From assembly GCA_965116025.1 (NCBI GenBank), contig OZ220480.1, forward strand, positions 1,280,001-1,344,000: a stretch of 64,000 bases of DNA, read 5' to 3'. Numbering within the stretch: position 1 is the stretch's first letter; every line of letters starts with the position of its first letter. The notes under the pieces were generated by a model. It was not told the origin of the DNA, ran no database searches, and saw nothing but the letters and a program-made list of their open reading frames with translations. Below, piece after piece: positions 27,302 to 45,793 of the stretch. A program made the position numbers and the translations under genes. The stretch comes from an uncultured candidatus Porisulfidus sp. (lineage in GTDB: Bacteria > Pseudomonadota > Gammaproteobacteria > Poriferisulfidales > Poriferisulfidaceae).

Positions 27302-27378
<77 letters not shown>

Positions 27379-27552: not shown

Positions 27553-28899
27553 ATGGATCTGATCAGTCTCAAGAACTTTCGTTGCTTTCACGACGAACAG
27601 GAAGCTCGCCTCGCGCCGCTGACCTTGCTCGTCGGCGACAACAGCACGGGAAAAACGTCCTTGATGGCCATGATTCGGGTGCTTTGCGAAGTGGCCTACT
27701 CGGACAGGATTCCCAATTTCAAGGAAGAACCCTACGATCTTGGAGGTTTTGACGATATCGTCCACTACCGTGGACCGCGAGGCGGACGAACTGATTCGTT
27801 CAAAGCGGGGTTTGAGACGAAACCCAATCATTCCCGTGGCAGTTCGTTCCGCTTCTCTGTCGTCTTTAAGCGCGGTGAGGGAGGTCCTATTCCTGTTCGG
27901 CGGCATCTGTTACGGAACGGTATTTGGTTCGAGGAGAACCAGGAAAAGAAAGAATTTTTGGAGTTTCGAATCGGAACCTCCAGGGGCTCATGGAAATTCG
28001 CGCTCCCGGCAAGGTATGCTTCCTCGTCTTCGAACCTTTCCGTAATGTGGCCGTTTGGTTTCGCGTTACGGTATTACAGATATCGGGATGATAATGGCCT
28101 GCGATGTACGCCTTTGAAAGGCTCTCCCGAATTCACTGAACAGGATTTGAATGAAGCCAGAAAAGTAGTCGCTGGATCCGTTAGTAGCGTGTATCGCCCT
28201 CACTTTCTCAGGGTGCCTTACGCGAGCGCGCCGGTCCGTTCTAAACCGCGTCGCACGTATGATCCGGCGCAGGTCGTATCTGATCCCCAAGGCGATTATG
28301 TCCCGATGTATCTCGCGAACATGTACATTCGGGACAAGGATCGGTGGCTGTCTCTGAAGAATGCGCTGGAGGGCTTTGGACGCGCCTCTGGCTTGTTCGA
28401 CGAAATTGATATCAAGCAATTAGGGAAGAGAGAGAACGAGCCTTTTCAGTTGCAGATCAGAAAATTCAGCGGGAGATTGAAAGGTCCTCCGCGCAATATG
28501 ATTGATGTTGGCTATGGCATAAGCCAAGTGTTGCCAGTGATTACCGAATTGTTGCGTCCTGACGCGCCATCAATGTTTCTTCTGCAACAACCTGAGGTTC
28601 ACCTCCACCCAAGCGCTCAAGCTGCCCTCGGGAGCTTTTTCTGCGAGATCGCTCAACCAAACCGTCAAATTTTCGTCGAGACCCATAGCGATCATCTGCT
28701 GGATCGCGTGCGTACGGACGTGCGCGATGGAAAGGGAAAGCTGAAGCCTGACGATGTGTCGATTCTCTACTTCGAGCGCAATAAGCTGGATGTTCGTATC
28801 CATTCGCTGATGCTGGATCAAGAAGGAAACGTTCTGAACGCGCCGCAAGGCTATCGCAGGTTTTTCTTGGAAGAAACGAAACGGTCGTTGGGCCTCTGA
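27553..28899 (+). CDS. ABC/AAA_21-type ATPase (DUF3696-like C-terminus)
   Basis: LKNFRCF, Walker A GDNSTGKT, signature VGYGISQVLP, QQPEVHLHP, VETHSDH. Confidence 0.88.
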   Translation: MDLISLKNFRCFHDEQEARLAPLTLLVGDNSTGKTSLMAMIRVLCEVAYSDRIPNFKEEPYDLGGFDDIVHYRGPRGGRTDSFKAGFETKPNHSRGSSFRFSVVFKRGEGGPIPVRRHLLRNGIWFEENQEKKEFLEFRIGTSRGSWKFALPARYASSSSNLSVMWPFGFALRYYRYRDDNGLRCTPLKGSPEFTEQDLNEARKVVAGSVSSVYRPHFLRVPYASAPVRSKPRRTYDPAQVVSDPQGDYVPMYLANMYIRDKDRWLSLKNALEGFGRASGLFDEIDIKQLGKRENEPFQLQIRKFSGRLKGPPRNMIDVGYGISQVLPVITELLRPDAPSMFLLQQPEVHLHPSAQAALGSFFCEIAQPNRQIFVETHSDHLLDRVRTDVRDGKGKLKPDDVSILYFERNKLDVRIHSLMLDQEGNVLNAPQGYRRFFLEETKRSLGL

Positions 28900-28901
28900 T
28901 C

Positions 28902-29375
28902 GTGTGCGCCATCGTCGACGCGAATGTGGTCGGGGAGATGTTTGGGCATGATAAATCAGAGGCGGGCAGGAAATTTTTCGAGTGGCTTGACAGTGGCAAG
29001 GGGATTTTGGTTGCTGGTGGCAAAGTATCCGAGGAACTCGGTCAATCAGAACAGTTTCGGGAATGGGCGCGAAGCGCGCTTCTTGCAGGACAGGGACAAT
29101 TGCGGATTATGGATAAGGAGGCTGTGGTAAGGCGGACAGAAGAGATCAAGAAAGAGGGCACGTGCCGGTCTGATGGCCCGCACGTTCTCGCCTTGGCGCA
29201 AATCAGCGGGGCTCGTTTGCTGTACTCGAACGACCGGGACCTGCACCAAGACTTCAGGGACAAGGCTTTGGTAGACAATCCGCGCGGAAAAATTTATTCG
29301 ACGCTGAATAGTGGAGCACTGACGAAATCCCATAGGGAGTTGCTCGCGAAAAAAGATCTTTGCCGCTCCAAATGA
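28902..29375 (+). CDS. PIN-domain protein
   Basis: IVDANV..SDGPHVLALA..LLYSNDRDL; starts 2 bp after the ATPase stop. Confidence 0.75.
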   Translation: MCAIVDANVVGEMFGHDKSEAGRKFFEWLDSGKGILVAGGKVSEELGQSEQFREWARSALLAGQGQLRIMDKEAVVRRTEEIKKEGTCRSDGPHVLALAQISGARLLYSNDRDLHQDFRDKALVDNPRGKIYSTLNSGALTKSHRELLAKKDLCRSK

Positions 29376-29468
29376 TGTGTGGGTCCTCGCTATTGGAAAA
29401 GGCGAAGCCCGTCGACCAAGCGGATGCGGAATTCAAGCGTGATCATTGAGCGAGAAGCAGGCGCTCGG

Positions 29469-30704
29469 GTGAGCGCATATGCAGTGGAATCCTCCTTTGG
29501 CTGGCTGGATCTAGACGAGAATGCCAGCGAACGAGTGAGCGAGTTGCTCCGCTCGCTCGAAGAGCCGACGACTCTCGACGTTCTTGGCTTGGGCGTTATT
29601 CGCGACGTTTTCTCGACGAAGCTGAGTCCGGGCACGTCGACGATCCAGACCCGGCTCCGTTATTTTATTTTTCTGCCGTGGATCTTCCGACGGATCGAGA
29701 TCGAGCGCGTCGCTCCGGGCGATTTCACCGACAGGCTCCACCGCGATGAGGCAAGGCTCATAGATCGTCTCCGGCATCTCGGCCAAAATCAAGGGGTGAT
29801 TGGTTACAGCGCGGGAAGGAGCCTCAAGCGAATGCCGAGCGCGGTCTATTGGGGCGGACTGGGCTCTTGGGGCGTTCGAAGGCTTGACCTCAGTCTCACC
29901 GAGTATGGCAAGCGAGCGTTCGCTGTCGGGCGAATCCGGGACGAGCGCGATGACGATGGAGACGTAACGAAGCGACCCGTGTCAATGTGGTCGGCCAGCC
30001 CTCCATTACCTGAGGATTTTCTGTGGGAGGACCTCACCTTTGATCTTGAGCGCGAAGAGGCTTGGTTCTTGGCTGACCATATCCGGCGGCACCATCCTGA
30101 TTCCTTGCTAGCGGCCTTGTGCGGCATATCGAGCCGAGAATGCGACGTTCCCTATCCGTGGGATTTGTCGACGCGCGTGCTGTCCGCGCTACCCAATTCT
30201 CTCACGGAGACACTGCGCCACGCCCGTTGTTTTTCGGAATTAACCCTTGGACCTCAACTCGTCTACAACATGCTTCTCGCGCGAAAGGCGAGAAACGAGC
30301 TCGGATGGGACACGGATGCCTTGGAAGTGGACCAGCGTGACGGTCTCCACGAATGGGGACTGTTGATTCGCGACCGACATGAAGCGCTACGCTCTTGGGT
30401 TGACGACCTCCCAGAGTTTTGGCGTATCTTGGCTGGGTGCCGCGTCGGGGCCGCTACCAGGGATTTCGTGGGGGAAATGGTCCGACGCGCTGTGGACGAT
30501 CCAGATGGATTTCCTGAAGACCGTCGGGTCCATGTGCTGATCCGCCATCGTGAGCTTTTGCTCAAGGGGAAGCGAGCCCGGCTGACCCAACGGACGGCAT
30601 TGGAAAAATGGAACCAAAAGCCTATGGGGCTTCAGCTTGACTACCGATGGCCCATCACCAAAAGCTATCTCGCGGATCTCGCCGCGGCTGGATTGGAAGC
30701 TTGA
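29469..30704 (+). CDS. DUF6361-like protein
   Basis: FGWLD, DVLGLGVIRDVFS..LSPGTSTIQTRLRYFIFLPW, GVIG, PSAVYWGGL, LDYRW; start GTG 29469 is estimated. Confidence 0.75.
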   Translation: MSAYAVESSFGWLDLDENASERVSELLRSLEEPTTLDVLGLGVIRDVFSTKLSPGTSTIQTRLRYFIFLPWIFRRIEIERVAPGDFTDRLHRDEARLIDRLRHLGQNQGVIGYSAGRSLKRMPSAVYWGGLGSWGVRRLDLSLTEYGKRAFAVGRIRDERDDDGDVTKRPVSMWSASPPLPEDFLWEDLTFDLEREEAWFLADHIRRHHPDSLLAALCGISSRECDVPYPWDLSTRVLSALPNSLTETLRHARCFSELTLGPQLVYNMLLARKARNELGWDTDALEVDQRDGLHEWGLLIRDRHEALRSWVDDLPEFWRILAGCRVGAATRDFVGEMVRRAVDDPDGFPEDRRVHVLIRHRELLLKGKRARLTQRTALEKWNQKPMGLQLDYRWPITKSYLADLAAAGLEA

Positions 30705-32509
30705 TGCTTCATCCTGCGAACCGGCTCGTCCTCACCGACGTGATACGGCCGCCGGAGGCTTTCCGTCTTGAGTCGGCCATGGCCGTGACGTTCACGCTGG
30801 ATCTCCGGGCGCTTTTGTTCGCGCCTGCCGCGATGGCGTTCTCCGAATCCTCTGATATCGCTTCCGACGGTAGTTCGAGCGAGTCGGTCGAATTGCTTCA
30901 TGCCTTGCGTTCCCACGTGAGCAAAATCACCGTGTTCAGCCAGGTGGGCGAGATCGCGTTGCCTCCTTCGCGTCGAGTCTTCGCCTTCCTGGAGCGGACC
31001 GTCGTTCCGGTTGACGCGCCGCGTGGCGGGATCGTTCATCCCAAGGCGTGGGTGTTGCGGTACGAGTCTGTCGATGAGTCGGTGGATCGCTCGCGACCGG
31101 AACGGCGACTCCGCGTGCTCATCGCGAGCCGGAATCTCACGTTCGATACGAGTTGGGATACGGTGGTCCGCCTTGACGAGGTGGTGGACGGGCCCGGAGC
31201 CTCGCTGGAGTCTGTTGGAGAGCTGTTCAGGGGGCTTCTCGATACCGCGGTCGATAAGGTCTCGGCTGATCATAGTGATCGCGTGCGCTCGTTGTCGGAC
31301 GCGCTTGGGGTCGCTCGTTTCGCGTTGCCTGCGGGAGTGGACGATTTGCGGATTCACGTTTTGGGCTTGGACGACGAGCCCTCTCCACTTCCAGACACGG
31401 CTGATCGGTCGCTGATCATCTCTCCCTTCGTGAGTGATGATTTTTTCACGACGAGAGCATGTCCGCCGCCGGTGAACGAGCTCGCCAGCCGATCCGGGTC
31501 GCTTGACCAACTCAAGCCGGAAACGTTGACCAAAATAGAGAGAGGCTATGTCTTCGGTGATGAAAGCGTTCCCAATGTTGACGCGAAGAACGACGCGTCC
31601 TCCATGGATGATCCTGGTCGGCCTCTTATTGGGTTGCATGCCAAGGTCTTCGCGTTCGAGGAAAATGGCCGGGCACGCTTGTTTCTTGGTTCAGCCAACG
31701 CGACTGGCGCCGCTTTCCATCGCAACGTGGAAATCCTCGTGGAACTCAAGGGGTCCGCGACGGTATTGGGCATTGATCGGTTTTGGAGTGGAACGGAGGA
31801 TCCGGGTCTCCGCAGCTTGTTTTACGAATACGACGGATCCGACGCGCTTGATGACATTGACGAGGGCCCGTCCCTGGATCGAGCGAGACGCGAGATCGCC
31901 CGGCTACCGCTCAGGGGCTTTGTCGAGGAGAGTGGCTCCGAGTGGGCGACCACCTACCGATCAAGTCAGCCGGTGCCCAGCATCGATGGCATCAAAGAGA
32001 TGAATTGCTGGCCGCTCGCGCTGGAGGGACATCGGAAACGCGTCGTCACGGGCGAGCTTCTCCAAGCGCGTTTCGAGACTAGCCTGGAGACCATAAGTGG
32101 GTTTCTCGCCTTTGAGCTCATTGGCTCGGAAGGCGCGTTGACTCGCTTCGTTGTTCCTGTTCCGCTCATTGGCGCGCCAAGTCACCGGGAACGATTTCTT
32201 TTGCGCGCTCTCGTCGGGAACGCGGAGCGTTTTCTACGATACCTTTTGATCTTGCTGGATGAAGACCAAGCCGAACTGCGTTTCTCGATCAAGAGCCTCG
32301 GTGCTGACGGCACTTCGGATGGGAGCGTTCCCCTGAGCTTGCCGGTTTTGGAGAAAATGCTGAGGACGATGCGCCGGGACCCCGGAAAGCTTGCCGCACT
32401 GCACCCGCTCGTGTCGGATTTGGCTGATGCCAATGCGCTCCCGCCCGGTTTCGCGGAACTCTGGGAGAACGTGCATGACGTAGCGCTCGCGGAAGGAATG
32501 GGTCGATGA
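30704..32509 (+). CDS. phospholipase D-family protein (two HxK motifs), probable nuclease
   Basis: VHPKAW..IASRNL and LHAKVF..LGSANAT..RNVE; TGATG overlap with upstream gene. Confidence 0.85.
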   Translation: MLHPANRLVLTDVIRPPEAFRLESAMAVTFTLDLRALLFAPAAMAFSESSDIASDGSSSESVELLHALRSHVSKITVFSQVGEIALPPSRRVFAFLERTVVPVDAPRGGIVHPKAWVLRYESVDESVDRSRPERRLRVLIASRNLTFDTSWDTVVRLDEVVDGPGASLESVGELFRGLLDTAVDKVSADHSDRVRSLSDALGVARFALPAGVDDLRIHVLGLDDEPSPLPDTADRSLIISPFVSDDFFTTRACPPPVNELASRSGSLDQLKPETLTKIERGYVFGDESVPNVDAKNDASSMDDPGRPLIGLHAKVFAFEENGRARLFLGSANATGAAFHRNVEILVELKGSATVLGIDRFWSGTEDPGLRSLFYEYDGSDALDDIDEGPSLDRARREIARLPLRGFVEESGSEWATTYRSSQPVPSIDGIKEMNCWPLALEGHRKRVVTGELLQARFETSLETISGFLAFELIGSEGALTRFVVPVPLIGAPSHRERFLLRALVGNAERFLRYLLILLDEDQAELRFSIKSLGADGTSDGSVPLSLPVLEKMLRTMRRDPGKLAALHPLVSDLADANALPPGFAELWENVHDVALAEGMGR

Positions 32510-35500
32510 CCGCTCCAGTCGACGTTGGGAAAACGCTGTCAGATCTAAAAGTCTTTCAACGACGAACCGCGCGCTGGGCGTTCAAGCGGATGTTCGCTGA
32601 TCGGAATCCCTCTGTTCGATTCTTGATCGCCGACGAGGTTGGGCTTGGCAAGACTCACGTCGCTAAGGGCGTGATCGCGCAAGTGATCGAGCATCTCCGA
32701 CAGGCTGGCGATGAACGCCATGACATAGTCTACGTTTGCTCCAACGCGGCGATCGCGCGGCAGAATATTCGAAAGCTCGCTCCTGATGGAATTGAGCCGC
32801 TCGATAGCGTGGACCGGCTGACCATGCTCTCCGTGACAGAGTTGCGTGACAGCGATTCGAATCAGGCGGCTATCAACCTGTTGACGATTACGCCCGGGAC
32901 ATCCTTGGACTTTGGCCGTAGCACGGGAAAATTTCGAGAGCGCTGCCTGGCGTACGCTTTCTTGAGTGCCCATTGGGGGAGAGGCGTGATGACCGGGCCG
33001 GCTCGATGGATTTTCTGGCATGGCCTTAGATCCGGAGATCCCGATGAACGGTTGCGGCAGGAGGAGCGACAGTTTCGGCCGTTGATCAAGAGGTCGCTTG
33101 AGGATTTCGCCAAGCGGCTTGAGGAAACAGAGCGAGCCCGACGCGCTCAGCGTGAGTCCACCCTGCGCGCCATGTTCGAGCGGCTGGTCGATGAATTGGC
33201 TTGGAAGCGGAAGTTTCCGCATTATCTCCAGGAAGATCGGAAGGAATTGATTGGGGAGATTCGCCGCGTCATGGCGATTATTGGGATTGACGCGCTACGC
33301 CCGGATTTCGTGGTGCTGGATGAGTTTCAGAGATTCAAGGACCTGTTGCGGCCTGAGCCGGAAAACTTCGCCGCTGAGCTGGCCAGCCGGTTATTCAACT
33401 ACAAGGATCCGGCGACTGGACGTTCCACACGGACGCTGTTGCTTTCCGCGACCCCGTATCGGATGTATACCACAGACGATCAGGAAGACGGCGATCATTA
33501 TGAGGACTTCTTCGAAACCTGCTCGTTCTTGCTCCAGGATCCGACGGAAGTTGATCATCTGAAAAGCCGCTTCCATGATTTGCGCTCGGTGCTTCTCGCT
33601 CGTGGATCGATCAGCGACACCAGAAAGATTTGCGCTGATATCGGGGCGCGGTTGCGTGGCGTGATGGCGCGGACGGAGCGGCTGGCCGCTACGCCGGATC
33701 GTTCTGGAATGTTGCGCGAGCTGGGTGCTGAAGTTGCGATCAGGCCAGATGATCTTCGCGCCTATCTGAGATTTGGCGATCTGGCCCAGATGGTGAAACA
33801 TGGCGAGCCTGTTGAATATTGGAAGTCAGGGCCGTATCTCCTCAACTTCATGGAACGGTACAAACTGAAAGAGTCCGTTGTGAAATTGGCCGATGAGGGT
33901 CGATTCGATGGAGGTGATGGATTCGAGCCGGGTCCAGGAATGCTGGACTGGAACGAGATCGAGGAGTATCAGCGCGTCGATCCTCAGAACGGACGGCTCC
34001 GTTGGCTCCTTGACGATCTGGATCGTCATCGTGCGTTCGAATTGCTCTGGATTCCTCCGTCCATCCGGTATTACGATGCCGGGTCGGTGTACGAGTCGGA
34101 GGAAGCGGCCCGTTTCACGAAGCGATTGATCTTTTCTGGGTGGGCGGTTGTCCCGAAGGTAATCTCCTCGCTGGTTAGTTTCGAGGCCGAGCGTCGCGTT
34201 TTCGCCGCGCGCGAGCACGAGTATACGGCGGATTACCGACAGCGGGGTGGCCAGCGTCTCACTTTTCGGACCAGTGAGCGTGCGGCGGACGAAATCAGCC
34301 CAGGAGAGATAGCCGCGGGCCGCCGGGCGGCGGCGATGACTTCGTTTCTTCTCATTTGGCCGAGTCCAAGCCTCGCGGAACTCGGCAATCCTAGACCTCT
34401 GGTCTGGCAGGAGCGGCGCTTGGCTTCTGATGTACTCAAGAGCGTCGAGGATACAGTGAGAGAAGCTATCGAACCATTGATTCGGCTAGCGCCAAGCGTT
34501 GGAAAGGCGGACCAACGATGGTATTGGGCCGCGCCCTTGCTTCTGGATCACCGGCATCACCGGTCCGCGCTTGATTTCCTGCTTCATTCAGATATCGAAA
34601 TTCTTTGGGACGAGCAAGCGGGAAGCGGGTTTCGTGCGCACCTTGCCGAGGCGAAGGATAGGGCGCGGCGCGGTTCGGAAGGTCTCGGCCGGCCCCCCGA
34701 CGATCTCGCGAAAGTTCTCGCCGAGCTCGCGGTCGGTGGGCCAGCGCAATGCGCGTTGCGGACGCTCAGCTCGGTATCTGGGTTGTCCATTTCCGACGAT
34801 TGCGTAGTGAAGGGCGCGACATGGGTTAGTGCCGCGTTTCGGAGTTTTTTCAACGCTCCAGAGGTCACGGCTGTGATCGTTGGGGCGGAGGAAGGGGAGT
34901 CACGTTCCAGCGAACGAGTGGGCAGCTACTGGCGCGACGTTCTCCGACATTCGATCAGCGGAAACCTCCAAGCCGTTCTTGATGAGCATGCGCATGTGCT
35001 TCGCGATTGGTTAGGCTACTTGAATTTCATCGACAAAAAACACCGCGAGAAAGCAGTTGAAAACATCGCCGGGTATGTTTGGGATGCGTTGGAAATGCGG
35101 ACTTCCTCGTTTCAGGTGGATATCCCGGTTCGACGAAAGAATGACGATGGCGTGGGTTTTCGGGAGCGACGGATGCGCACCAGATTCGCGGTCGCTTTCG
35201 GCGATCAGTCTCTTGACGATGGTGGTGAAGCTCGGGTCGAGGCCGTCTCCACGGCGTTCAATTCCCCGTTTTGGCCCTTCGTGCTCATATCCACCTCAAT
35301 CGGACAAGAGGGATTGGACTTTCACCTTTGGTGCCACGCCGTCGTGCATTGGAACTTGCCCTCCAATCCGGTCGACTTGGAGCAACGCGAGGGGCGAGTC
35401 CACAGGTACAAGGGACACGCCGTTCGGCGGAATATCGCCGCGACGTTTGGGTCGGAGCTACGCGCCTGCTCGAATGGCAGGGATCCGTGGAGCGAGTTGT

Positions 35501-35769
35501 TCGCCATGGCCGCGTCCCAAGCATCCTCGACCGACGGCGAGATGGTTCCGTATTGGGTGTTCCATCAGGGGCCAGCGAGGATTGAGCGGCATGTGCCGGT
35601 GATGCCTTTCAGCAGAGAGGCGGTGACTCTGCCGCGCCTCCGCAAGGCGCTCGCGGCCTATCGCCTCGCGTTCGGGCAACCCCGCCAGGAAGAACTGGTC
35701 GAGTTTCTCGGAGCGGACCGTTCGGGCGAGGATTTGCTGGGGCTTCGTATCGATTTGTCTCCGCCGTAG
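32506..35769 (+). CDS. SF2 (SNF2-like) helicase
   Basis: IADEVGLGKT, LDEFQRF, LLSATP, STSIGQEGLDFH, LEQREGRVHRY; ATGA overlap with the PLD gene. Confidence 0.9.
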   Translation: MTAPVDVGKTLSDLKVFQRRTARWAFKRMFADRNPSVRFLIADEVGLGKTHVAKGVIAQVIEHLRQAGDERHDIVYVCSNAAIARQNIRKLAPDGIEPLDSVDRLTMLSVTELRDSDSNQAAINLLTITPGTSLDFGRSTGKFRERCLAYAFLSAHWGRGVMTGPARWIFWHGLRSGDPDERLRQEERQFRPLIKRSLEDFAKRLEETERARRAQRESTLRAMFERLVDELAWKRKFPHYLQEDRKELIGEIRRVMAIIGIDALRPDFVVLDEFQRFKDLLRPEPENFAAELASRLFNYKDPATGRSTRTLLLSATPYRMYTTDDQEDGDHYEDFFETCSFLLQDPTEVDHLKSRFHDLRSVLLARGSISDTRKICADIGARLRGVMARTERLAATPDRSGMLRELGAEVAIRPDDLRAYLRFGDLAQMVKHGEPVEYWKSGPYLLNFMERYKLKESVVKLADEGRFDGGDGFEPGPGMLDWNEIEEYQRVDPQNGRLRWLLDDLDRHRAFELLWIPPSIRYYDAGSVYESEEAARFTKRLIFSGWAVVPKVISSLVSFEAERRVFAAREHEYTADYRQRGGQRLTFRTSERAADEISPGEIAAGRRAAAMTSFLLIWPSPSLAELGNPRPLVWQERRLASDVLKSVEDTVREAIEPLIRLAPSVGKADQRWYWAAPLLLDHRHHRSALDFLLHSDIEILWDEQAGSGFRAHLAEAKDRARRGSEGLGRPPDDLAKVLAELAVGGPAQCALRTLSSVSGLSISDDCVVKGATWVSAAFRSFFNAPEVTAVIVGAEEGESRSSERVGSYWRDVLRHSISGNLQAVLDEHAHVLRDWLGYLNFIDKKHREKAVENIAGYVWDALEMRTSSFQVDIPVRRKNDDGVGFRERRMRTRFAVAFGDQSLDDGGEARVEAVSTAFNSPFWPFVLISTSIGQEGLDFHLWCHAVVHWNLPSNPVDLEQREGRVHRYKGHAVRRNIAATFGSELRACSNGRDPWSELFAMAASQASSTDGEMVPYWVFHQGPARIERHVPVMPFSREAVTLPRLRKALAAYRLAFGQPRQEELVEFLGADRSGEDLLGLRIDLSPP

Positions 35770-35849
35770 CCGCGAGCGTGGTCTCGTGGGCGCAGGTGTC
35801 CCGTGACCCGGATTCCATCGGATGGATATCGTCCCGCCCACGCCACTCT

Positions 35850-38800
35850 TCAACTTCTCGTCCGTCTCGATGATGTCGAGTTTCGGTCTGGCTCGAAAAC
35901 GAGTTCGGGCAGAACCGTTTCCCAAGCATCACACTTTATGTTGTTGTGGTATTTCGGGTCCGATGCCTCGCGGCTCCGGGTCACCACAGCGAAGACACGC
36001 GCCGATTCGCACCTCGTCCTGGGGGGAGGCGTGAATGACTTGGCGAGGCGCCCCACGGTTTGGCCGGCTTGATTCCGCAACATCCAGCTTCCGTTTTGCC
36101 CGACCCGCACGTTCAGAGGGACATCGACTGACAACGCGGCGATCACGTCATGCACTGGATCGTTAGCGCTTCGCCGTCCGGCGAATCCTAGGTCGACATC
36201 CTGAAGATCTAGTCGAACGTGACGGCGCTCAATGGCTTTGGAGCATGGCGGAAGTTTGGTGGCGTTTCGTCGAATTGTCGCGGCATGGCTGGCCAGCTCG
36301 GCCGGAAAGCTTCGGGAATCTTTGAGGTGCGCCAGCGTGAGCGTCTTCCGCGCTCGCGTCATCGCCACATAGTACAGCCGGCGTGGCGCGTCGGGGTCCT
36401 CGTCACGATTCGAGTGGTCCCAGCTACCGTCCAGCACGACCACATGATCGAATTCCAGCCCCTTGGCCCGATGCGCAGTGAGCAGTAGCAAGCCTTGTTG
36501 GCGACGGCGCATATCTTGACCCCATTCGGCCAGCCATTCGATGAAATGACTTACGGGAGTCTCTCCGTCACCGATTTCCAACGCATGCTCTTCCACGGCT
36601 TGGCGCAACAGATCATGCCAGGGGTTGGACTTCCGTCCGTTCACCCACTTCCGCAAGGACGCACCGTCGACGATTCGCGGTTCTCGTTCGCGTAGCCATT
36701 GGAGGAGCACTTGGGTTTCCCGCAGGCTCCAGAATCCCGGAATTCCTTCGTTCGCCATCTGCGCCGGGATGCTGTGCGCCTCACAGAACGCGCGCACCGG
36801 AACCAGATACTTCCACGTGCGCGCGATCACCGCGCACCGCGACCAGTCCCAATCCCGCGTCAGTTTGGAGAGACGAAGAAGCTCGGCCATGATGGCCCGC
36901 GCTTGGTAGATCGGATCTTCGCCGGCTGGCAGAATCTGAACCTTTCCGCACGAGATTGGGTCCAGCGTCGTCCATTCTCCTCCTGGCGGCTCTTTCTTTC
37001 TCGCGCGGTCGATGTGGATTGGATGCTCCGCCTTCATTCGGTTCCGCGCGGGCTTGATCATCGCGTTGGCCGCGGTCACGATGTTATCCGTTGAACGGTA
37101 GTTGGCGGTCAGATAGACAGGCTTCGGTCCGTAATCGGCCTCGAAACGTCGGATGAATTCCACCGACGCGCCACTGAAAGCGTAGATGTTTTGGTCGTCG
37201 TCGCCGACGGCGAATAGAGTGAGTTTGCCTGACTCGTCTTCCAGCGTCCGGCCCGCGAGAGCCGATATCAGTTCGTACTGCTCTGGGCCAACATCTTGGT
37301 ATTCGTCCACGAGTATCCATCGAAATCCCGCGAGCAGGCGTCCGCGACGCTCGTCCGCTTCTTCTGGTGACAATTTCTCTCCGCGGAGTAACGCGACCGC
37401 GCGGCGCATCACGTTCCGGAACGCCTCCTCATCCGGTCGCTCCGACTGGCCAGCGAAACTCGCGCCCGCCAAGCGCATGGCGAGCGCGTGGCAGGTGAGC
37501 ACCGTCACGCCGCGCGCATCGCTGCCGATCAAATCTCCAAGTCGGCGGCGGATATCGACGGCGGCATGGCGATTGTAAGCGAGGGCGAGAATGCCGCGAG
37601 CGTTTTCTCTCCTGGCTCGGATTAGCCAAGCGATGCGGTGCACCAGCACGCGCGTTTTTCCAGAGCCGGGGCCCGCGAGCACCAGCACGTTGATTCGTTC
37701 TCGCTCATCGGCCACGATGCGTTGCTGAATCGGATTCCGCAGATTCTCGACGATATCCCGCCAGGACGCGGGCGTTGTCTGCCGACCGATTTCCCGATCC
37801 CGACCTGGCAACCAGCGAGCGAGAAACTCGTCTTCCTTGAGAGCGAAATAGTCCATCGCCAGACGTAGCGCGTCGCTCATGGCGGCGAGGCCGCGCTCGG
37901 CGAACTCCACCATGACGTGGATCTGTAGCACTTGGCCCTTGTAGTGAAGGGCGAGGGGTTTGAAGTCCGCATTGGAATAACCACGCTTGTCCCGGCGCTC
38001 CAGCCTAATCGTCATCGCCGGACGGAATACCGCGAGGCCTTTGTTGAGGCGGATGACCTCTTGCTCGTGGAGCCACAGCAGGGCGCGATCAAGCAATTTC
38101 TCTGGGTATCGGACCATGCTTTTGAGGGTCAGGTCAGCTGTGATCGTTCGCAGGAGGTTCCCGATCGTGGTTTCGGCCAGCAAATCGGTTCCACGGCTTT
38201 TTGGCGGCAGACAATCCAGCAGATGGTCCAGCAAACGACTGGCCGCGTCGCGGCGCAGGCTAGCGATCTTGTCCAGCGCGCTCCATTCGCGATTCAGCGT
38301 GACCCACGCGGTCTCCGCGTCCCGCTTGCGGACCGTCAGGCTACCCGCTGTTCCATCCTCTCCGCGTCCGTCATAAGCGATGCTCCGGATAATGCGAAGC
38401 AGCCGTTCTGGAAGGGGGTCGACCAAACCTTGGTCCCGTAGAGTTTGAGCGGCGATTCGTAGATGAATGGATGACCCGTTCCCCTTGTCTAAGTCGGGAG
38501 CGGCCTCCCGCATATGGGCGATAAGGGCGGTCTCCAGTTCGCTCGCCTCCGCGAGACGCTTTCGCGATGAGCGTTCCACTCCGTCATGGACGAACGCGGT
38601 CAACGCCGTATCGTTGCTTGCGATGCTGAGACGTTCCAGATCGTACAGGGCGGCGCGCACGGCTTCGGGGCTTAATCCCGATACCTCCATCAGCTCGTCC
38701 GTGCTCACGCCTTCGTCAGCTTTCGCGTTGATCAGAGCGTCCGCGATGCGCAATAACTTCCCGCGGGAAGAATCCGTGAGCTTGGCTTTGGCGAGCCGTC

Positions 38801-41036
38801 GCTCGGCCTCATCTATAGAGCTCACCAGCAATGAGGACGGAAACACCTGCACGACATTCTCCTCTCTGGAGAGAAGCTGGGAATCTTCCAGCCACGAGAC
38901 GGCGGTGCGCACCCGTGTGTCATCCGTCGCGGAATCGCGCTCGAAGGCTTTTTCCTCGTCCTCACCGAGGATTTCCCCCGCGGTCGCCACCACCTCGCCC
39001 CCGAAACGTTTTTTGCGGTCGAGGTTGCGCAAGGCTCTCAAGATTCCATGAATCTCCTGGCGGGTGAGGCGTGATCGCGCAGACATGCCGAACTGGCGCT
39101 CGACATCGTCCCTCTCATAGAGAAGAACGCAATGCGCCAAGTCGCGATCACGTCCGGCGCGCCCGGCTTCCTGCAAATAATTTTCCAGAGAGCCGGGTAT
39201 GTCGGCGTGGATTACCAGCCGTACGTCCGGCTTGTCGATTCCCATGCCGAAGGCGTTGGTGGCCGCGATGACGCGCAGATCGCCATCAATGAAACTCCTT
39301 TGCACGTCTTTCTTGGTCTCAGGAGTAAGGCCCGCGTGGTATCGATCCGCGGCAACCTTCCTCATCTGGAGATATTCCGCTATTTCCTCGCTTCCCTGTC
39401 GCGTCGCGCAGTAGATAATCACGCCGCCAGACTTGTCAGATGGCAGATGGGAGGTCAGGACCTGCAAGATATCCGAGAATTTTTCCGCGCCCGTAGTCGG
39501 GATCACCTCGAAAACGAGATTCGCGCGCTCGGTTCCGCCGTTGAACACGGTCATCTCAATGCCGAGACTATCCCGAAAATGCCGGACGACATCTTCGATG
39601 ACATCGGGCTTCGCGGTCGCGGTCAGGCACAAGATCGGGGGCATGGGACCGTCTCCCGTCCTCTCGCGGATAAAGCGCCCGATATAGCGATAGTCAGGCC
39701 GAAAATCGTGCCCCCAGCGCGACAGGCAATGCGCCTCGTCCAACACCCAGGTTCCGATTTCGCGCTGGCTCAGCGCCCGCTTCAGAGAGCGGGAGCGCAA
39801 TTGCTCCGGAGAGATCAGCAGGATGCCAGCGTCTCCCATCCGGACTCGGTCCAAGGCGTTCGAGCGCTCCGGCATGGATAGCAACCCGTTGACCGTTACG
39901 CAACAGTTGACGCCGCGTCGCTCCAGTCCCGCCACTTGGTCCGCCATCAGCGCGACCAGTGGCGATATCACGACCGTCAGCGCTCCGGTTTTATCGTAGC
40001 GTGAAAGCGCGGGAATCTGGTAGCAAAGCGATTTTCCGGTGCCGGTGGGAAGAATCCCGAACGCGTGGCGTCCCGCCATCGTCTCCTCAACGATGGCCTG
40101 CTGCATGGATTTGCCACCCTCGCATGCTGGCTCGGGGCGAAAGCTGTCATAACCGAACCAGCGTTTCAGCTCTTTGCCCGCGTCATGCCGCTTTCGGCAC
40201 CAGCCGCATGCCGGGTCGCAGCAAGCGATGTCCCTGAGGCGACGTACCAGATTCCCGGCCTCTGGAAACTGATGGCGAACCCAAGGCGGCATGACGGAAT
40301 TTCCGCCCGCTACCGATAGCCACGCCAGCGCATAAGCCAGCGCCCAGTTGAATTTCGCCGCGTCCTCCACGATGTCGCGCGTCTGGGGCGCGCAGGCTGA
40401 TCGCTCAAGTATCCTTCTGATCGTCGCGATGGCTTCCGCTTCCGACGGTCGATCAGCTTGCCGAATCTCTCGGAAGAACTCGTCCAGAGCGAGGTCGATG
40501 CCCATGCGCTCTGGAGTGCACAACCAATGCCACGCGGCGAGCAAGTCCGACGGAGCTCTCGCCAAAGCTTCTCGTTCATCATTGAAGAGTTTCAGAGCTA
40601 TGCCGGAATCGAGTTCAGGGTCATTCACCTGGCTACGCTTGAGTCCTCCGTCTTGGTAATGCTTGACGAGACTGTGATAGGGATTGCGAGGAAAGGCAAG
40701 CGGGCTTAGACGAAGCGTATCCACCACTGGCAGTTTCAGCAACCGGAGGTCTGGATTCGCGGCCACCAAGTGGGGCAGGTCGAACTTGATCAGGTTGTGT
40801 CCCAGCAAGAAGGCCGCGCCTTTGGCAAAGTCGTCAAGGCGTGCCAAGGCGGAGGATAATCCGCTACCGGAATGCGTCAGACTACGGTCAGTGTCTGGAC
40901 GTACCGCCCCGAAGGCATGAATGCGTTTGTTCTTGCCGACTTCAAGGTCGAGAGAAACGCAATACGGCTGGAAGGAGAGCCCAGCCCATGGGCTGGCTGT
41001 TCCGTTTTTCATGCCACGTCCGGATTTGGCTTTCAA
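35850..41036 (-). CDS. exonuclease-like + RecQ helicase + UvrD helicase fusion
   Basis: SLDLEV..GHNLIKFD..VDTL (DEDD-like); PTGTGKS, DEAHCLSRWGHDFRPDY, QEAGRAGRD (RecQ); AGPGSGKT, VDEYQD, VGDDDQNIY, AKGLEFD, YVAMTRAR (UvrD). Start may be ATG 41012. Confidence 0.9.
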   Translation of the reverse strand: MKAKSGRGMKNGTASPWAGLSFQPYCVSLDLEVGKNKRIHAFGAVRPDTDRSLTHSGSGLSSALARLDDFAKGAAFLLGHNLIKFDLPHLVAANPDLRLLKLPVVDTLRLSPLAFPRNPYHSLVKHYQDGGLKRSQVNDPELDSGIALKLFNDEREALARAPSDLLAAWHWLCTPERMGIDLALDEFFREIRQADRPSEAEAIATIRRILERSACAPQTRDIVEDAAKFNWALAYALAWLSVAGGNSVMPPWVRHQFPEAGNLVRRLRDIACCDPACGWCRKRHDAGKELKRWFGYDSFRPEPACEGGKSMQQAIVEETMAGRHAFGILPTGTGKSLCYQIPALSRYDKTGALTVVISPLVALMADQVAGLERRGVNCCVTVNGLLSMPERSNALDRVRMGDAGILLISPEQLRSRSLKRALSQREIGTWVLDEAHCLSRWGHDFRPDYRYIGRFIRERTGDGPMPPILCLTATAKPDVIEDVVRHFRDSLGIEMTVFNGGTERANLVFEVIPTTGAEKFSDILQVLTSHLPSDKSGGVIIYCATRQGSEEIAEYLQMRKVAADRYHAGLTPETKKDVQRSFIDGDLRVIAATNAFGMGIDKPDVRLVIHADIPGSLENYLQEAGRAGRDRDLAHCVLLYERDDVERQFGMSARSRLTRQEIHGILRALRNLDRKKRFGGEVVATAGEILGEDEEKAFERDSATDDTRVRTAVSWLEDSQLLSREENVVQVFPSSLLVSSIDEAERRLAKAKLTDSSRGKLLRIADALINAKADEGVSTDELMEVSGLSPEAVRAALYDLERLSIASNDTALTAFVHDGVERSSRKRLAEASELETALIAHMREAAPDLDKGNGSSIHLRIAAQTLRDQGLVDPLPERLLRIIRSIAYDGRGEDGTAGSLTVRKRDAETAWVTLNREWSALDKIASLRRDAASRLLDHLLDCLPPKSRGTDLLAETTIGNLLRTITADLTLKSMVRYPEKLLDRALLWLHEQEVIRLNKGLAVFRPAMTIRLERRDKRGYSNADFKPLALHYKGQVLQIHVMVEFAERGLAAMSDALRLAMDYFALKEDEFLARWLPGRDREIGRQTTPASWRDIVENLRNPIQQRIVADERERINVLVLAGPGSGKTRVLVHRIAWLIRARRENARGILALAYNRHAAVDIRRRLGDLIGSDARGVTVLTCHALAMRLAGASFAGQSERPDEEAFRNVMRRAVALLRGEKLSPEEADERRGRLLAGFRWILVDEYQDVGPEQYELISALAGRTLEDESGKLTLFAVGDDDQNIYAFSGASVEFIRRFEADYGPKPVYLTANYRSTDNIVTAANAMIKPARNRMKAEHPIHIDRARKKEPPGGEWTTLDPISCGKVQILPAGEDPIYQARAIMAELLRLSKLTRDWDWSRCAVIARTWKYLVPVRAFCEAHSIPAQMANEGIPGFWSLRETQVLLQWLREREPRIVDGASLRKWVNGRKSNPWHDLLRQAVEEHALEIGDGETPVSHFIEWLAEWGQDMRRRQQGLLLLTAHRAKGLEFDHVVVLDGSWDHSNRDEDPDAPRRLYYVAMTRARKTLTLAHLKDSRSFPAELASHAATIRRNATKLPPCSKAIERRHVRLDLQDVDLGFAGRRSANDPVHDVIAALSVDVPLNVRVGQNGSWMLRNQAGQTVGRLAKSFTPPPRTRCESARVFAVVTRSREASDPKYHNNIKCDAWETVLPELVFEPDRNSTSSRRTRS

Positions 41037-41306
41037 TGTTTCAATGTTGAATTCGCGCAGAGTCCATTTCTATTATCCTCAATCACCGATTAGCTTTCCA
41101 TGGCAGTGCTGGGTCGCATTCATGGTCACTATTTTCCGGGAAATAATTTTGCAGGTTAATCCTTCGCTGGCATCATGCTTCCTTGAATGCAGATGGGCAC
41201 AGAATTCGGAATGAGCGAGGGAATTTGTGCAGAGAGAATGTTGTTCGTTGCTATTGCTGGTAGTGATGCAACTGTTGGTTAACATTTTGGCAGTCCAGAG
41301 CAGCAG

Positions 41307-42629
41307 CCCAGTTTCAACTTTCAAGTGCAACACTCCGAAGAATGGCGGTGGAGGCGATGAGTCGCGGTAAGGTCTCGTTGTCATCAACCGCCCCCGAGAG
41401 AGGCGCTTATGAGAAGTTACACGCAACTCACCGAGACCCAACGTTACCAGATCGAGGCGCTGCGGGGCCTCGACATGAGCCAAGCGGAGGTGGCGCGAAG
41501 GGTCGGCGTCGACCGCGGCGCGGCGTGCCGCGAACTGAAGCGGAACGCCGACGCTCGGAGCGGACGATACCGGGCTGAGCTGGCGTGCCGAAAGGCGAAA
41601 GAGCGCCGCCAGAAGCGGGCTCGGCGGCGGGTCTCGCCGGCGGTGTGGAGGCGGGTCAAGAAGCTGCTGAAGCAGGGCTGGAGCCCGCAGCGGATCAGCG
41701 CGTGGCTGGACAAGGAGGGCTTGGGGAAGGTGAGCCACGAGCTCATCTACCGCTGGGTATGGGCGGATCGGCGGCGGGGCGGCGACCTGTATCTGCGCTT
41801 GCGGCAAGGCCACCGCCGACGCCGGCGGTATGGGCGCGGGAAGGGCCGGTCGCGCATTCCGGGGCGGGTGCCGATCCAGGAGCGTCCGGAGGTGGTGGAG
41901 ACGCGCTCGCGGCTGGGAGACTGGGAAGCGGACACGGTGATCGGACGGCGTGGCGGCGGGGTTCTGGCGTCGCTGCTCGAGCGCAAGTCGCGGCTGGCGC
42001 GTTTCAAGCGGTTGCCCCGGCGCACGGCGCGCGCGGTGGCGGACGCGATCATCGGCATGCTGGCGCCGTTGAGGGACCGGGTTCTGACCGTGACCTCGGA
42101 CAATGGAACCGAGTTCATGGATCACCGGCGGGTGGCGCGCCGCTTGGGAGCGAGGTTTTACTTCGCGGATCCGTATTCCTCTTGGCAGCGCGGGAGCGAC
42201 GAGAACGCGAACGGGCTGATCCGGCAGTATTTCCCGAAATCGCGGCGGTTCGACACGATCTCGGAGGAGGAGGCACGGGCGGTGGAGGACCGCCTGAACG
42301 ACCGGCCTCGGCTCTGCTTGGGATGGCGCACGCCGAACGAGGCGTTTTTCGGAGCGGATTCGGAGGTGGTTCGGGCCTGGCGAGAGGAGATGTCCCGGCT
42401 TTTGTAAATCCGAGGGGGCAGGTCGGCGCGGCGCTGATTCGTCCGGGGAAGGCCGGCCTTCCCCGGACGGAACGCGGCCGACTGTCGCCAGCTTCCCCCG
42501 ACCCTCTTCACCATCCTGCCGTTCTTCCCGTCCGGCGACCGACCCTCGCCGCCTTCCCTCGATCTTTTTCGTCATCCTGCCGCTCTCCACCGGGTTACAA
42601 TGCTGTTGCACTTGAAAGTTGAAACTGGG
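41307..42629 (+). mobile_element. IS30-family insertion sequence, complete
   Basis: Perfect 26-bp TIRs CCCAGTTTCAACTTTCAAGTGCAACA (41307-41332) and 42604-42629; CAG direct repeat at 41304-41306 and 42630-42632. Confidence 0.92.
41409..42407 (+). CDS. IS30-family transposase
   Basis: YTQLT..RYQI HTH, WSPQRI, GDWEADTV, DNGTEF, PYSSWQRGSDENANGLIRQYFPK. Confidence 0.95.
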   Translation: MRSYTQLTETQRYQIEALRGLDMSQAEVARRVGVDRGAACRELKRNADARSGRYRAELACRKAKERRQKRARRRVSPAVWRRVKKLLKQGWSPQRISAWLDKEGLGKVSHELIYRWVWADRRRGGDLYLRLRQGHRRRRRYGRGKGRSRIPGRVPIQERPEVVETRSRLGDWEADTVIGRRGGGVLASLLERKSRLARFKRLPRRTARAVADAIIGMLAPLRDRVLTVTSDNGTEFMDHRRVARRLGARFYFADPYSSWQRGSDENANGLIRQYFPKSRRFDTISEEEARAVEDRLNDRPRLCLGWRTPNEAFFGADSEVVRAWREEMSRLL

Positions 42630-42640
42630 CAGTCTATAAT
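42612..42640 (+). promoter_or_regulatory. hybrid sigma70 promoter (IS30-derived -35, host -10)
   Basis: TTGAAA (42612-42617, inside right TIR), 17-bp spacer, TATAAT (42635-42640), 30 bp upstream of gmrSD ATG. Confidence 0.75.
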
Positions 42641-42670
42641 CCCGCCAAATTTTTGAGCGGGAGGACCTAC

Positions 42671-44428
42671 ATGTACCAGCATGGTACTATCAAGAAAGCG
42701 TTGGAAAAAATCGCATCGAACGAATATGTGCTTCCTGCGATCCAACGTGAATTTGTATGGAATCCAGATCAGATATGTAGGCTGTTCGACAGCGTTATGC
42801 AGGGTTACCCCTTTGGTGACTTTCTTTTTTGGTGTATAGAGCCAGAACGGTCCGCGGATTACCGCTATTATGGATTCGTAAGAGAGTATCACCAGCGTGA
42901 CGACCCGCACTGCCCGGATCTCGGGCCATTTTGTGATCGACGAATCATCGCTGTACTTGATGGACAACAACGGCTTACCGCCTTCAATATTGGGTTACGA
43001 GGATCTATGGCCGTAAAGCGTCCTTATAAATGGTGGAGCAGTCCTGACGCTTTCCCTCGCAAGGTGCTCGCATTGGATGTGCTCGCCGAAGTCAAGCGGG
43101 ACGAGGAAGGTAATCGCTATTCTTTTAAATTTGTTGAAGAAGGAAAAACCGGTCGGCAGGATGGACATCTATGGTTCAAGGTCTCGGATATCATGAAGAT
43201 GATGGATGCCTCGGACATACTAGACTGGCTCTCGGATCACGAGCTTGAGAAACAAGAGCAGAAAAATGCATCCCGCATTCTTGGTCGCCTCCAAAAATTT
43301 ATCCATGTAGAGCGAACGATCGCGTACTACAAGGAAACGAATCAGGATATTGAGCATGTTCTCAGTATTTTCATCCGCCGCAACAGTGGGGGAATTACTT
43401 TATCTTATTCGGACTTGTTGCTCAGCATTGCGACTTCTCAGTGGAGAGAGCTTGACGCGCGCAAGGAAGTTCATCAACTGGTTGACGATTTGAACCGCAT
43501 TGGTTCAGGTTCAGGATTGGCACTTACCAAGGATTTCGTTCTGAAGGCTGGGCTAATGCTGACCGACATTGCAAGCGTTGGCTTTCAGGTTCGAAATTTC
43601 ACTCAGAGCAATATGGCGGTGCTTGAAAAAAACTGGCAACGTATCCGCGAATCATTGATCTCGACTGTTCAACTCGTAACAGGATTCGGGTTTGATGCTA
43701 ACAGCATCCGCGCCACCAGTGCGTTATTGCCAATTGCCTATCATCTATACCAGATCGGTACCCCTAGAGATTTCGATACCGCCAAGAAATATGAGGATGA
43801 TCGTAAGGCAATCCGTGGATGGTTAACTCGAACGATTTTGAAAGCATCGGGAATTTGGGGTAGTGGCTTAGATGCTTTGCTCACAGCCCTCCGCGAGGCT
43901 CTTCGCGAAGCGGGAGGGCATGGTTATCCTGTTGCAGAACTTCGGCATGCAATGGCGCAACGAGGGAAGAGTTTGGAGTTCAATAACGAAGAGATTGAAG
44001 ATCTGGCTGACATGGAATTGAATGATCGGCGCATATTTGCTTTGTTGGCGTTATTGTTTCCTTTTGTCGATTGTCGGCATCATAAATTCCATATCGATCA
44101 TGTCTTCCCAAAGAGCCGGTTTACACGTAAGCGTTTACAGAGTGCGGGCATTGATGATAGTCAGTTTGATTTCAATGATTTGGCTGATCGAGCCAATCGA
44201 ATTGGTAATCTTCAATTGTTGGAAGGTGCAACGAATAACCAAAAGTGTGAGACCTTGCCAGCGGAATGGCTTCAAAAACAATATCCTGATCCGGCTGAGC
44301 GGCAACATTATTGCGATTTGTACGTCCTCGTAGATATTCCTGCAGACATGTCTGGATTTCTCGATTTTTACACTACTCGCCGAGATCTATTGTGGCAACG
44401 CATTGTTGAGTTGGTGAATTCGGTATAA
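42671..44428 (+). CDS. GmrSD-family modification-dependent (type IV) restriction endonuclease (DUF262 + DUF1524)
   Basis: LPAIQREFVW, LDGQQRLT, FIRRNSGG; HIDHVFPK..IGNLQLL..NN; GGAGG RBS; low GC. Confidence 0.88.
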   Translation: MYQHGTIKKALEKIASNEYVLPAIQREFVWNPDQICRLFDSVMQGYPFGDFLFWCIEPERSADYRYYGFVREYHQRDDPHCPDLGPFCDRRIIAVLDGQQRLTAFNIGLRGSMAVKRPYKWWSSPDAFPRKVLALDVLAEVKRDEEGNRYSFKFVEEGKTGRQDGHLWFKVSDIMKMMDASDILDWLSDHELEKQEQKNASRILGRLQKFIHVERTIAYYKETNQDIEHVLSIFIRRNSGGITLSYSDLLLSIATSQWRELDARKEVHQLVDDLNRIGSGSGLALTKDFVLKAGLMLTDIASVGFQVRNFTQSNMAVLEKNWQRIRESLISTVQLVTGFGFDANSIRATSALLPIAYHLYQIGTPRDFDTAKKYEDDRKAIRGWLTRTILKASGIWGSGLDALLTALREALREAGGHGYPVAELRHAMAQRGKSLEFNNEEIEDLADMELNDRRIFALLALLFPFVDCRHHKFHIDHVFPKSRFTRKRLQSAGIDDSQFDFNDLADRANRIGNLQLLEGATNNQKCETLPAEWLQKQYPDPAERQHYCDLYVLVDIPADMSGFLDFYTTRRDLLWQRIVELVNSV

Positions 44429-44512
44429 CTCCAGATAGTCGCGTGATCGCTTGATTGCTCGGTAAGGTCAAAGAGCGCGTTAATGCGTTGATTCGCCCGG
44501 CTTGCGGTGGGG

Positions 44513-45613: not shown

Positions 45614-45793
45614 GTTTTGTCTCGTCGTCAATCGTGAGTTGCCCCGATCCCTCTGGCCGAAAACATGGCTCGCGGGAGCGGAATATGGCGGGCATTTTAA
45701 ATCACTATCGATATTTCGCTCGCTACCGAAACCGAATCGCTCACCCAAGCCGTCAGATCGCCGCCGCGAGCATCCGTCGGTTACCGTGATTTT

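Follow-up and report, generated by a model that had tools for sequence, protein, structure and literature searches.

Two probably autonomous defence modules, an ABC ATPase-PIN pair and an apparently complete Azaca system, side by side in a variable island of an uncultured candidatus Porisulfidus sp.

Azaca (ZacABC), reportedly named by Millman et al. 2022, and Menshen (NsnABC), which is likewise said to come from Millman 2022, are two of the described systems closest to the locus analyzed here; HEC-03 is another. The locus is a row of five genes behind a tRNA-Met gene of an uncultured candidatus Porisulfidus sp. It lies in a stretch of 64,000 nt (OZ220480.1 of assembly GCA_965116025.1, positions 1,280,001-1,344,000 of the forward strand), which was analyzed as a whole and is called the window below; its features are collected in Table 1. 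The first two genes encode an ABC ATPase and a protein assigned to the PIN fold (the pair, or module A), and the last three match zacA, zacB and zacC. An earlier reading of this DNA, the original prediction, took the ATPase-PIN module together with the triad for an undescribed composite system. We suggest that the locus instead comprises, very probably, two autonomous anti-phage modules, which stand side by side through the clustering that defence genes usually show, here in a variable island.

Azaca operons give more than million-fold protection against T4, according to the preprint of Ragucci et al. 2025 (10.1101/2025.07.10.664194). The same preprint reports that purified BmZacABC cleaves T4 DNA only with all three proteins, that cleavage requires the PLD site and the Walker A motif of ZacC, and that hypermodified T4 DNA is the preferred substrate of this homologue, the sole one studied biochemically. 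HEC-03 is presented by Payne et al. 2024 (10.1101/2024.01.29.577857) as a validated two-gene defence system consisting of an ABC ATPase and a VapC-like PIN protein, where defence is reported to need both genes and expression is toxic in E. coli. OLD-ABC ATPases paired with PIN endoribonucleases are described as backup effectors inside BREX-type loci (PMC12839542). For Menshen, a published model of a 4:2 assembly predicts that pairs of DUF3696 tails of the NsnB tetramer clamp the PIN-like N-domain of NsnC, and NsnB-NsnC is likened there to Septu and PARIS, whose ATPases control a nuclease bound to them (PMC12065111).

The two modules of the window do not travel together. Relatives of the PIN protein were collected by a scan of one genome per species, which found 487 stretches, and the locus counts take the best 80 of these. 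Within 10 kb of the 80 pair loci neither ZacA nor ZacB is found by phmmer at E up to 1e-5 (0/80), and the lone weak ZacC match, in locus L026, is HmaA. Seen from the side of Azaca, ZacA is present in 5 genomes of a phylum sample of 400 others. Neither the ATPase nor the PIN occurs in the 16-20 kb around any of these five loci, and no member of the PIN family is found anywhere in the five genomes with a profile that, as a positive control, finds G000 at 1.3e-73. Metagenomic Azaca loci give the same picture: among 80 of them (ZacA and ZacB in 76, the full triad in 52, upstream sequence exceeding 2 kb in 42), profile hidden Markov models of the ATPase and PIN families find no match at E up to 1e-3 (0/80).

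Within the genus, represented by 15 other genomes, two carry the PIN family (G407 and G406) and one carries ZacA (G407), which brings the genomic Azaca loci to six. G407 thus has both modules, and they lie on different contigs: surE is found 69 nt past the PIN gene, and the 10 kb upstream of zacA contain neither gene of the pair. The pair proteins of G407 are 53-57% and its ZacABC proteins 32-38% identical to those of the window, against mostly 42-88% for core genes (63-88% for the seven largest or best conserved). Both modules are therefore mostly less alike than the core genes, which points to separate acquisitions.

Contigs from three public runs of one study, X1, X2 and X3, were also compared with the window, those of X2 and X3 leaving gaps in its cover (for example, 43100-44427 in X2). 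X1 contigs match the window exactly, with 0 differences, and may represent the source sample or the same data as the assembly. In X3, a contig of 6,603 nt agrees with the window over 28044-29025 and again over 35846-36456, the two matches being separated by 4,926 unlike letters. In this strain the Azaca stretch is replaced, and the start of the ATPase/PIN module and the downstream helicase flank are kept. Hence, the five-gene composite is not supported, as co-occurrence is absent from all 80 pair loci, all 80 metagenomic and all 6 genomic Azaca loci, the modules are on separate contigs in G407 and the Azaca stretch is exchanged in X3. The count of ATPase-PIN neighbours of the triad across genomes, which the original prediction had put forward as a check, shows them together again only in a related strain of the same study (X2). 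It had also considered the case that both modules hit known system models and never co-occur; here Azaca and the ATPase-PIN architecture are known and no co-occurrence is seen elsewhere, and the PIN protein alone hits no model. The antiviral character it assigned to the locus has held up.

Defence-system profiles were taken from PADLOC-DB v2.0.0 and domain profiles from Pfam, and the profile matches of the gene row are strong, far beyond what sequence comparison would give by chance. In the Azaca module (29469-35769), ZacA matches PDLC03828 at 1.4e-102 (profile positions 2-392 of 396) and PF19888 (DUF6361) at 2.3e-51, ZacB matches PDLC03829 at 1.2e-138 (1-581 of 586), and ZacC matches PDLC03830 at E=0 with 1018 bits (5-1016 of 1019) and Helicase_C of Pfam at 2.6e-7. 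The Pfam PLD match of ZacB is weak (PLDc_2, 6e-4); both PLD HxK half-sites are readable, VHPK at 130-133 (H131/K133) and LHAK at 330-333 (H331/K333), the second being followed by GSANAT (GSxN). ZacC has the Walker A motif GLGKT at 46-50, DEFQ at 272-275 and QREGR at 960-964. The three proteins were aligned with their counterparts encoded in 6 genomes and at 80 metagenomic loci, and at columns conserved in at least 90% the window agrees at 64/64 in ZacA (among 82 ZacA sequences), 55/56 in ZacB and 209/213 in ZacC. The zacA-zacB-zacC order is kept in 5/5 phylum-sample loci, in G407 and in the 52 complete metagenomic loci.

By these profile and motif criteria genes 3-5 are a complete canonical Azaca system, and this copy looks intact. 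All three proteins are full-length, in the same order and encoded by overlapping genes, and they share the intact PLD HxK pair, the Walker A motif and DUF6361 with known Azaca; there is no structural difference, and the window proteins are 27-63% identical to other Azaca proteins. Their homology suggests that the three proteins, with ZacB as PLD nuclease and ZacC as SF2 ATPase, would form a complex degrading phage DNA.

The first gene of the pair encodes an ATPase with Pfam matches to AAA_21 (2.8e-22), AAA_15 (6.1e-21) and, for a C-terminal helix, DUF3696 (4.4e-5; 24.1 bits with a cut-off of 22). Its best PADLOC match is NsnB of Menshen (PDLC03878, 7.6e-50, profile positions 4-331 of 345); PDC-M55A (1.1e-31) and AriA (2.9e-23) are also matched, and HEC-03B (PDLC04148) is matched over its full length at 1.1e-28 (positions 5-433 of 458). 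The motifs are Walker A GDNSTGKTS, Walker B LLQQPEVHLHP and H-loop THSD. The Walker B region, residues 342-353 (window 28576-28611), has the sequence FLLQQPEVHLHP without variation among 31 family members, so the Gln-Gln that stands where ABC ATPases usually have an acidic pair is a family-wide trait. It hints that ATP binding may matter more than fast hydrolysis. In a family alignment of the window ATPase with 78 sequences, the window deviates at one column of at least 95% conservation, with a conservative I323 in place of V. By tblastn, the ATPase has no match in a plasmid collection (E up to 1e-30) or in a phage collection (E up to 1e-20).

The second gene gives no Pfam or PADLOC match of its own at permissive thresholds (PADLOC E up to 1). 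Its 435 homologues are of near-equal length, with only 2 longer forms found, and many have precomputed PF01850 matches; three family members searched directly (L002, L009 and L122) match PF01850 only below the threshold. An AlphaFold2 model built from 30 sequences has a pLDDT of 73.7, and Foldseek matches it at the top almost exclusively to VapC/PIN structures (best E 3e-3, TM about 0.45-0.55). The PIN profile finds VapC 7by2 among the PDB sequences with a weak E of 0.058, and two DUF4411 chains with E about 1. The model and these matches support a VapC-like PIN fold for gene 2.

The acidic residues D6, E45, D92 and D111 are conserved across the PIN family, and D92 aligns with the third catalytic Asp of VapC 7by2 in the same weak match. 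The window protein keeps D6, E45 and D111 and has Gly at position 92 (codon GGC, 29175-29177, one transition from GAC); its motif is thus SDGPH, against S(D/N)DPH in the family. D92 is found in 192 of the 194 motif-bearing sequences (199 were examined, some being the same protein twice), and the two exceptions are the window's own entries. Apart from this position, the protein retains every conserved residue, and its reading frame is unbroken. With G92 this PIN may have lost part or all of its effector activity, unless D91 next to it takes over. As Gly occupies the place of the third catalytic Asp, module A may therefore be weakened or inactive in this genome.

In other genomes the ATPase-PIN pair is a self-contained two-gene cassette. 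The ATPase is directly upstream of the PIN in 79 of the 80 pair loci, the 80th ending at a contig edge, and no third gene recurs in more than 14/80 loci, the largest neighbour cluster being a short-chain dehydrogenase. The genomes are labelled as metagenome-assembled genomes of many phyla, including Chloroflexota/Dehalococcoidia, Latescibacterota, Binatia, Acidobacteria, Alphaproteobacteria, Gemmatimonadetes and Nitrospirales, and the PIN identity of 49-65% across them suggests horizontal spread. The pair loci have 156 immediate neighbours, of which 103 have at least 200 aa; the scan covered 100 of these larger ones. The scanned neighbours are mostly housekeeping genes, such as recA, alaS, valS, thrS, dnaK, topA and typA, and defence genes are a minority.

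Some of the copies are embedded in defence loci. In 8/80 loci (L026, L029, L034, L037, L041, L049, L062 and L079) the methylase gene hmaB precedes the pair at a distance of at most a few kb, and in 6 of these 8 hmaC follows no more than a few kb downstream, which places the pair of these six loci inside an Hma system. Other pair loci adjoin restriction-modification methylases (type IIG/ISP or other), PDC-S01, ApeA-like or TIR genes. Single loci show further variants. HEC-01-like ATPase genes stand between the pair and the Hma genes in L041, L079 and L029, with several ABC-ATPase modules stacked in the Hma locus. Two tandem PIN paralogues follow one ATPase in L049 (10001-10975). The PIN is split into two open reading frames (ORFs) in L006 (near 10000). 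L071 (near 10000), with a split ATPase and a truncated PIN, gives the impression of a copy in decay.

HEC-03 is a described system that the pair matches in gene layout. HEC-03 was located by the PADLOC model HEC-03A, which has 159 positions and therefore represents the PIN component, in 9/400 genomes of the phylum sample. In 9/9 of these loci a homologue of the window ATPase (E 3e-23 to 2e-32) is encoded directly upstream of a PIN of 160-183 aa, and 7/7 HEC-03 ATPases examined have the AAA_15/21 and DUF3696 architecture. Both systems thus encode a DUF3696-tailed ABC ATPase (about 450-500 aa) and, directly after it, a PIN of about 160-180 aa; the occurrence of some window-type pairs inside Hma loci is a further likeness. 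The effectors, however, belong to different sequence families: the HEC-03 PIN model (PDLC04147) has no match in the window genome at E up to 10, phmmer finds nothing between the window PIN and the HEC-03 PINs at E up to 10, and hhalign gives a probability of 4%. The window ATPase, moreover, scores higher against NsnB than against HEC-03B. We note that in PADLOC-DB v2.0.0 HEC-03A (PDLC04147) is the 159-position PIN and HEC-03B (PDLC04148) the 458-position ATPase, the reverse of the naming in the preprint text (10.1101/2024.01.29.577857).

With Menshen the pair shares an NsnB-type ATPase, consisting of an ABC core and a DUF3696 tail, and a partner of the PIN fold whose gene follows directly. However, the partner is a stand-alone PIN of 157 aa whose family keeps the acidic residues, whereas NsnC is an inactive PIN with a C-terminal toxin, and the NsnC model PDLC03879 gives no match. 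No NsnA/DUF262 partner is found among the 100 scanned neighbours of the pair loci, and in the window the place upstream is taken by the tRNA gene. Judged by its sequence relationships, the pair falls outside Menshen, having neither NsnA nor an NsnC-type effector. A split Menshen with the GmrSD enzyme of the island as NsnA was also considered and rejected: this enzyme is a full-length HEC-05/BrxU-type protein encoded 13 kb away, and DUF262 is absent among the 100 scanned neighbours.

Other described systems are more remote. PARIS (AriAB), Septu (PtuAB) and Gabija (GajAB) likewise couple an OLD-type ABC ATPase to a nuclease effector, and the window ATPase weakly matches GajA and PtuA in addition to AriA; these matches cover only parts of the ATPase, and the window effector is a PIN and not a TOPRIM or HNH protein. 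The window PIN resembles VapC in its fold and acidic residues, but the pair has no VapB-type antitoxin, and the conserved partner is an ATPase of 448 aa encoded upstream. Sharing the architecture and a related ATPase with HEC-03, the pair is best described as a putative sister family within the known kind of OLD-ABC ATPase plus PIN.

By analogy with PARIS, Septu and the NsnB-NsnC part of Menshen, an oligomer of the ATPase would hold the PIN ribonuclease (RNase) inactive through the C-terminal DUF3696 helices. On sensing a phage cue, the ATPase would then release or activate the PIN, which would cut RNA and stop translation. A complex prediction with one copy each of ATPase and PIN scores 0.12 against a mark of 0.32, where the published NsnB-NsnC assembly is 4:2. 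The complex, its trigger, the RNA target and the defence activity of module A are proposed on the model of these relatives. Taken further, the pair could be a distinct and widespread sister family of HEC-03, uncatalogued in PADLOC-DB v2.0.0 and the literature searched, in which an NsnB-like QQPE ATPase controls a competent stand-alone PIN via its DUF3696 tail. It would then be the active-effector counterpart, possibly the ancestral state, of the interaction of NsnB with an inactive PIN in Menshen, and may be retained beside Azaca here as a second, RNA-targeting layer. We put this joint reading forward tentatively and regard it, as a whole, as unlikely.

Several observations weigh against two autonomous modules of known kinds. 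All five genes point the same way across short junctions, and the spacer between PIN and zacA has no terminator-like site, so that read-through co-transcription is possible; in a promoter and terminator scan of 27200-36200 sites were no commoner than in shuffled sequence, with none in this spacer. Contigs of X2, from a related strain roughly 92-97% alike, tile the same five-gene order, none of them spanning both modules, and the adjacency is therefore inherited within the lineage. HEC-03 occurs in 2/5 other Azaca genomes (G241 and G062) versus 7/395 without Azaca (one-sided Fisher p=0.004). Many pair copies have housekeeping flanks and no defence neighbour. The window PIN is unmatched by HEC-03A, NsnC or any other PADLOC model, so its kinship to these effectors, with the hhalign result above, is at the fold level only. 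Finally, with G92 the proposed working of module A may not apply to this genome. The shared orientation, the gaps of 2 nt and 93 nt with overlapping junctions elsewhere, the terminator-free spacer and the order conserved in X2 would all fit a single composite in which ATPase-PIN is an obligate part of an extended Azaca joining RNA and DNA effectors. We consider this highly improbable, as against it stand the missing co-occurrence at pair and Azaca loci, the separate contigs of G407 and the exchange of Azaca between retained flanks in X3; moreover, BmAzaca cleaves T4 DNA with ZacABC alone, as the preprint reports (10.1101/2025.07.10.664194), and the 93-nt spacer, taken as the sole non-overlapping junction of the five-gene row, falls exactly between the two modules.

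Selection might still keep mechanistically separate modules together. A DNA-targeting system would then be backed up by the abortive RNase of the pair, a role that has been proposed for OLD-ABC modules within BREX and Hma loci. The backup effectors of BREX-type loci (PMC12839542), the HmaB and HmaC genes around some pair copies, the frequency of HEC-03 in Azaca genomes and the presence of both modules in G407 are in line with such cooperation. But the adjacency of pair and Azaca is limited to this lineage, most pair copies have no defence neighbour, and Azaca lies on a different contig from the pair in G407 and from HEC-03 in G241 and G062. The co-occurrence rests on the latter two genomes, few in number, related and large; both have 5.7 Mb, and a general surplus of defence genes in large genomes accounts for it equally well. 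We therefore find it improbable that the modules are selected as cooperating layers. A better chance, though still a minor one, belongs to the explanation that module A is not an active defence here and is either a selfish addiction cassette of the toxin-antitoxin type or a decaying copy with a PIN killed by D92G. G92 at the aligned catalytic position, the VapC-like fold, the broken copies in L006 and L071, the many copies lone among housekeeping genes and the toxicity of HEC-03 in E. coli (10.1101/2024.01.29.577857) are all consistent with it. It is opposed by the ATPase, which is fully conserved with respect to its family, by the intact PIN frame and other conserved residues, by D91, which might substitute, by the X1 Logan contig, which reproduces the sequence with 0 differences but may be the same data as the assembly, and by the placement of copies inside Hma loci, which argues for a defence role of the family. 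On balance, we favour two autonomous modules brought together by defence-gene clustering.

The gene row itself is as the original prediction had drawn it. Its tRNA-fMet followed by five co-oriented genes, its junctions (a 2-bp gap, about 90 bp, TGATG and ATGA) and its five domain labels (ABC-ATPase, PIN, DUF6361, PLD and SF2 helicase) are confirmed by ARAGORN, by the ORFs read directly and by profiles, motifs and fold, respectively, and the resemblance of the last three genes to Azaca, which it had proposed, is verified by the full-length PADLOC matches and conserved columns. The tRNA is the sole one of the window. It has a C1/A72 mismatch and three G-C pairs adjoining the anticodon loop, which we take to be marks of bacterial initiator tRNA by textbook criteria. 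The longest ORF of zacA begins at GTG 29379; the ZacA and DUF6361 profiles begin only at its residues 37-39, and the likely start is therefore GTG 29469 or GTG 29484.

Table 1. Features of the tRNA-bordered island, in window positions
Feature	Position	Strand	Basis and remarks
tRNA-Met(CAT)	27302..27378	+	ARAGORN; forms the left edge of the island; congeners also have it beside xseA
OLD-ABC type ABC ATPase, 448 aa	27553..28899	+	Pfam, PADLOC, family alignment; starts 174 nt past the tRNA
Stand-alone VapC-like PIN (predicted fold), 157 aa	28902..29375	+	Homologues with PF01850, AlphaFold2 model, Foldseek; 2-nt gap after the ATPase
Spacer between modules, 93 nt	29376..29468	.	Sequence reading
ZacA (DUF6361), 411 or 406 aa	29469 (or 29484)..30704	+	PDLC03828, PF19888; 93-108 nt gap after the PIN
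ZacB, PLD-family nuclease, 601 aa	30704..32509	+	PDLC03829; ATG 30704 start within the TGATG overlap
ZacC, SF2/SNF2-like helicase-ATPase, 1087 aa	32506..35769	+	PDLC03830; start within the ATGA overlap
Rest of the island, outside both modules	35850..45748	.	Pfam, PADLOC, synteny with five congeners
1728-aa DEAD+UvrD fusion helicase and 510-aa protein 42 nt upstream	35850-42611	-	Pfam
GmrSD enzyme, HEC-05 (BrxU-like)	42653-44428	+	PADLOC 9.9e-212
Sel1-repeat protein, right island edge	44513-45748	-	Pfam

The island was delimited by synteny with five congeners. In these, xseA and tRNA-Met are followed by 1.3-8.8 kb of other genes and then by SRPBCC, SDR and TonB-receptor genes, and none of the genes of the two modules is present. 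The SRPBCC/SDR/TonB-receptor genes are found at 45.8-50.8 kb in the window, with an SRPBCC gene at 46 kb (45794-46276) as the right border, and the island of the window therefore spans about 27379-45790 (18.4 kb). The original prediction had invoked tRNA genes as island hotspots, and the different gene content of the five congeners between tRNA-fMet and SRPBCC/SDR agrees with this. Among the larger ORFs scanned by Pfam at 27.4-45.8 kb there is no integrase, and a search for direct repeats of the tRNA 3' end found none. A SulP/STAS permease occupies the site in 4/5 congeners. In G401 there are also ThiF-like, DUF6527 and leucine-rich repeat (LRR) genes: its locus L112 (16090-18044), at the same tRNA-Met hotspot, encodes a ThiF/E1-like protein (weak PADLOC E1-E2 match), DUF6527, two small ORFs and an LRR/Calx-beta protein. 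These genes may form a ubiquitin-like conjugation defence module.

The remaining genes of the window's island include a fusion protein of 1728 aa, with a DEAD/ResIII helicase at residues about 310-630 and a UvrD helicase at about 1100-1570. It gives only partial PADLOC matches (DpdF, PsyrT and GajB); for its 510-aa neighbour neither Pfam nor PADLOC gives a lead, and the best ESM Atlas score of 0.82 gives none either. The two genes may be a two-gene defence candidate. The GmrSD gene lies in the stretch of lowest GC of the island (0.48). A contig of X3 links 41078 with 44513 by 1,835 other letters where the window has 3,434, so that this strain has the 510-aa gene and GmrSD swapped out. The Sel1-repeat protein is encoded by 7 tandem units of 108 nt (44604-45551), which are 64-74% alike.

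The locus is thus a defence island with two modules of known kinds, and its ATPase-PIN architecture has already been described. A false lead, a new five-gene system, is thereby removed, and an Azaca example that looks intact is added from a small genome of 2.0 Mb. The analysis also brings out a large conserved family of ABC ATPase plus PIN that PADLOC-DB v2.0.0 does not recognize through its effector gene, so that automated defence annotation would under-call it. This family links the validated HEC-03 with the NsnB-NsnC interaction of Menshen, and the pair would be a convenient minimal system for studying the control of PIN-fold partners by ABC ATPases with a DUF3696 tail. With its natural D92G variant, the window offers a ready-made probe of the need for PIN catalysis.

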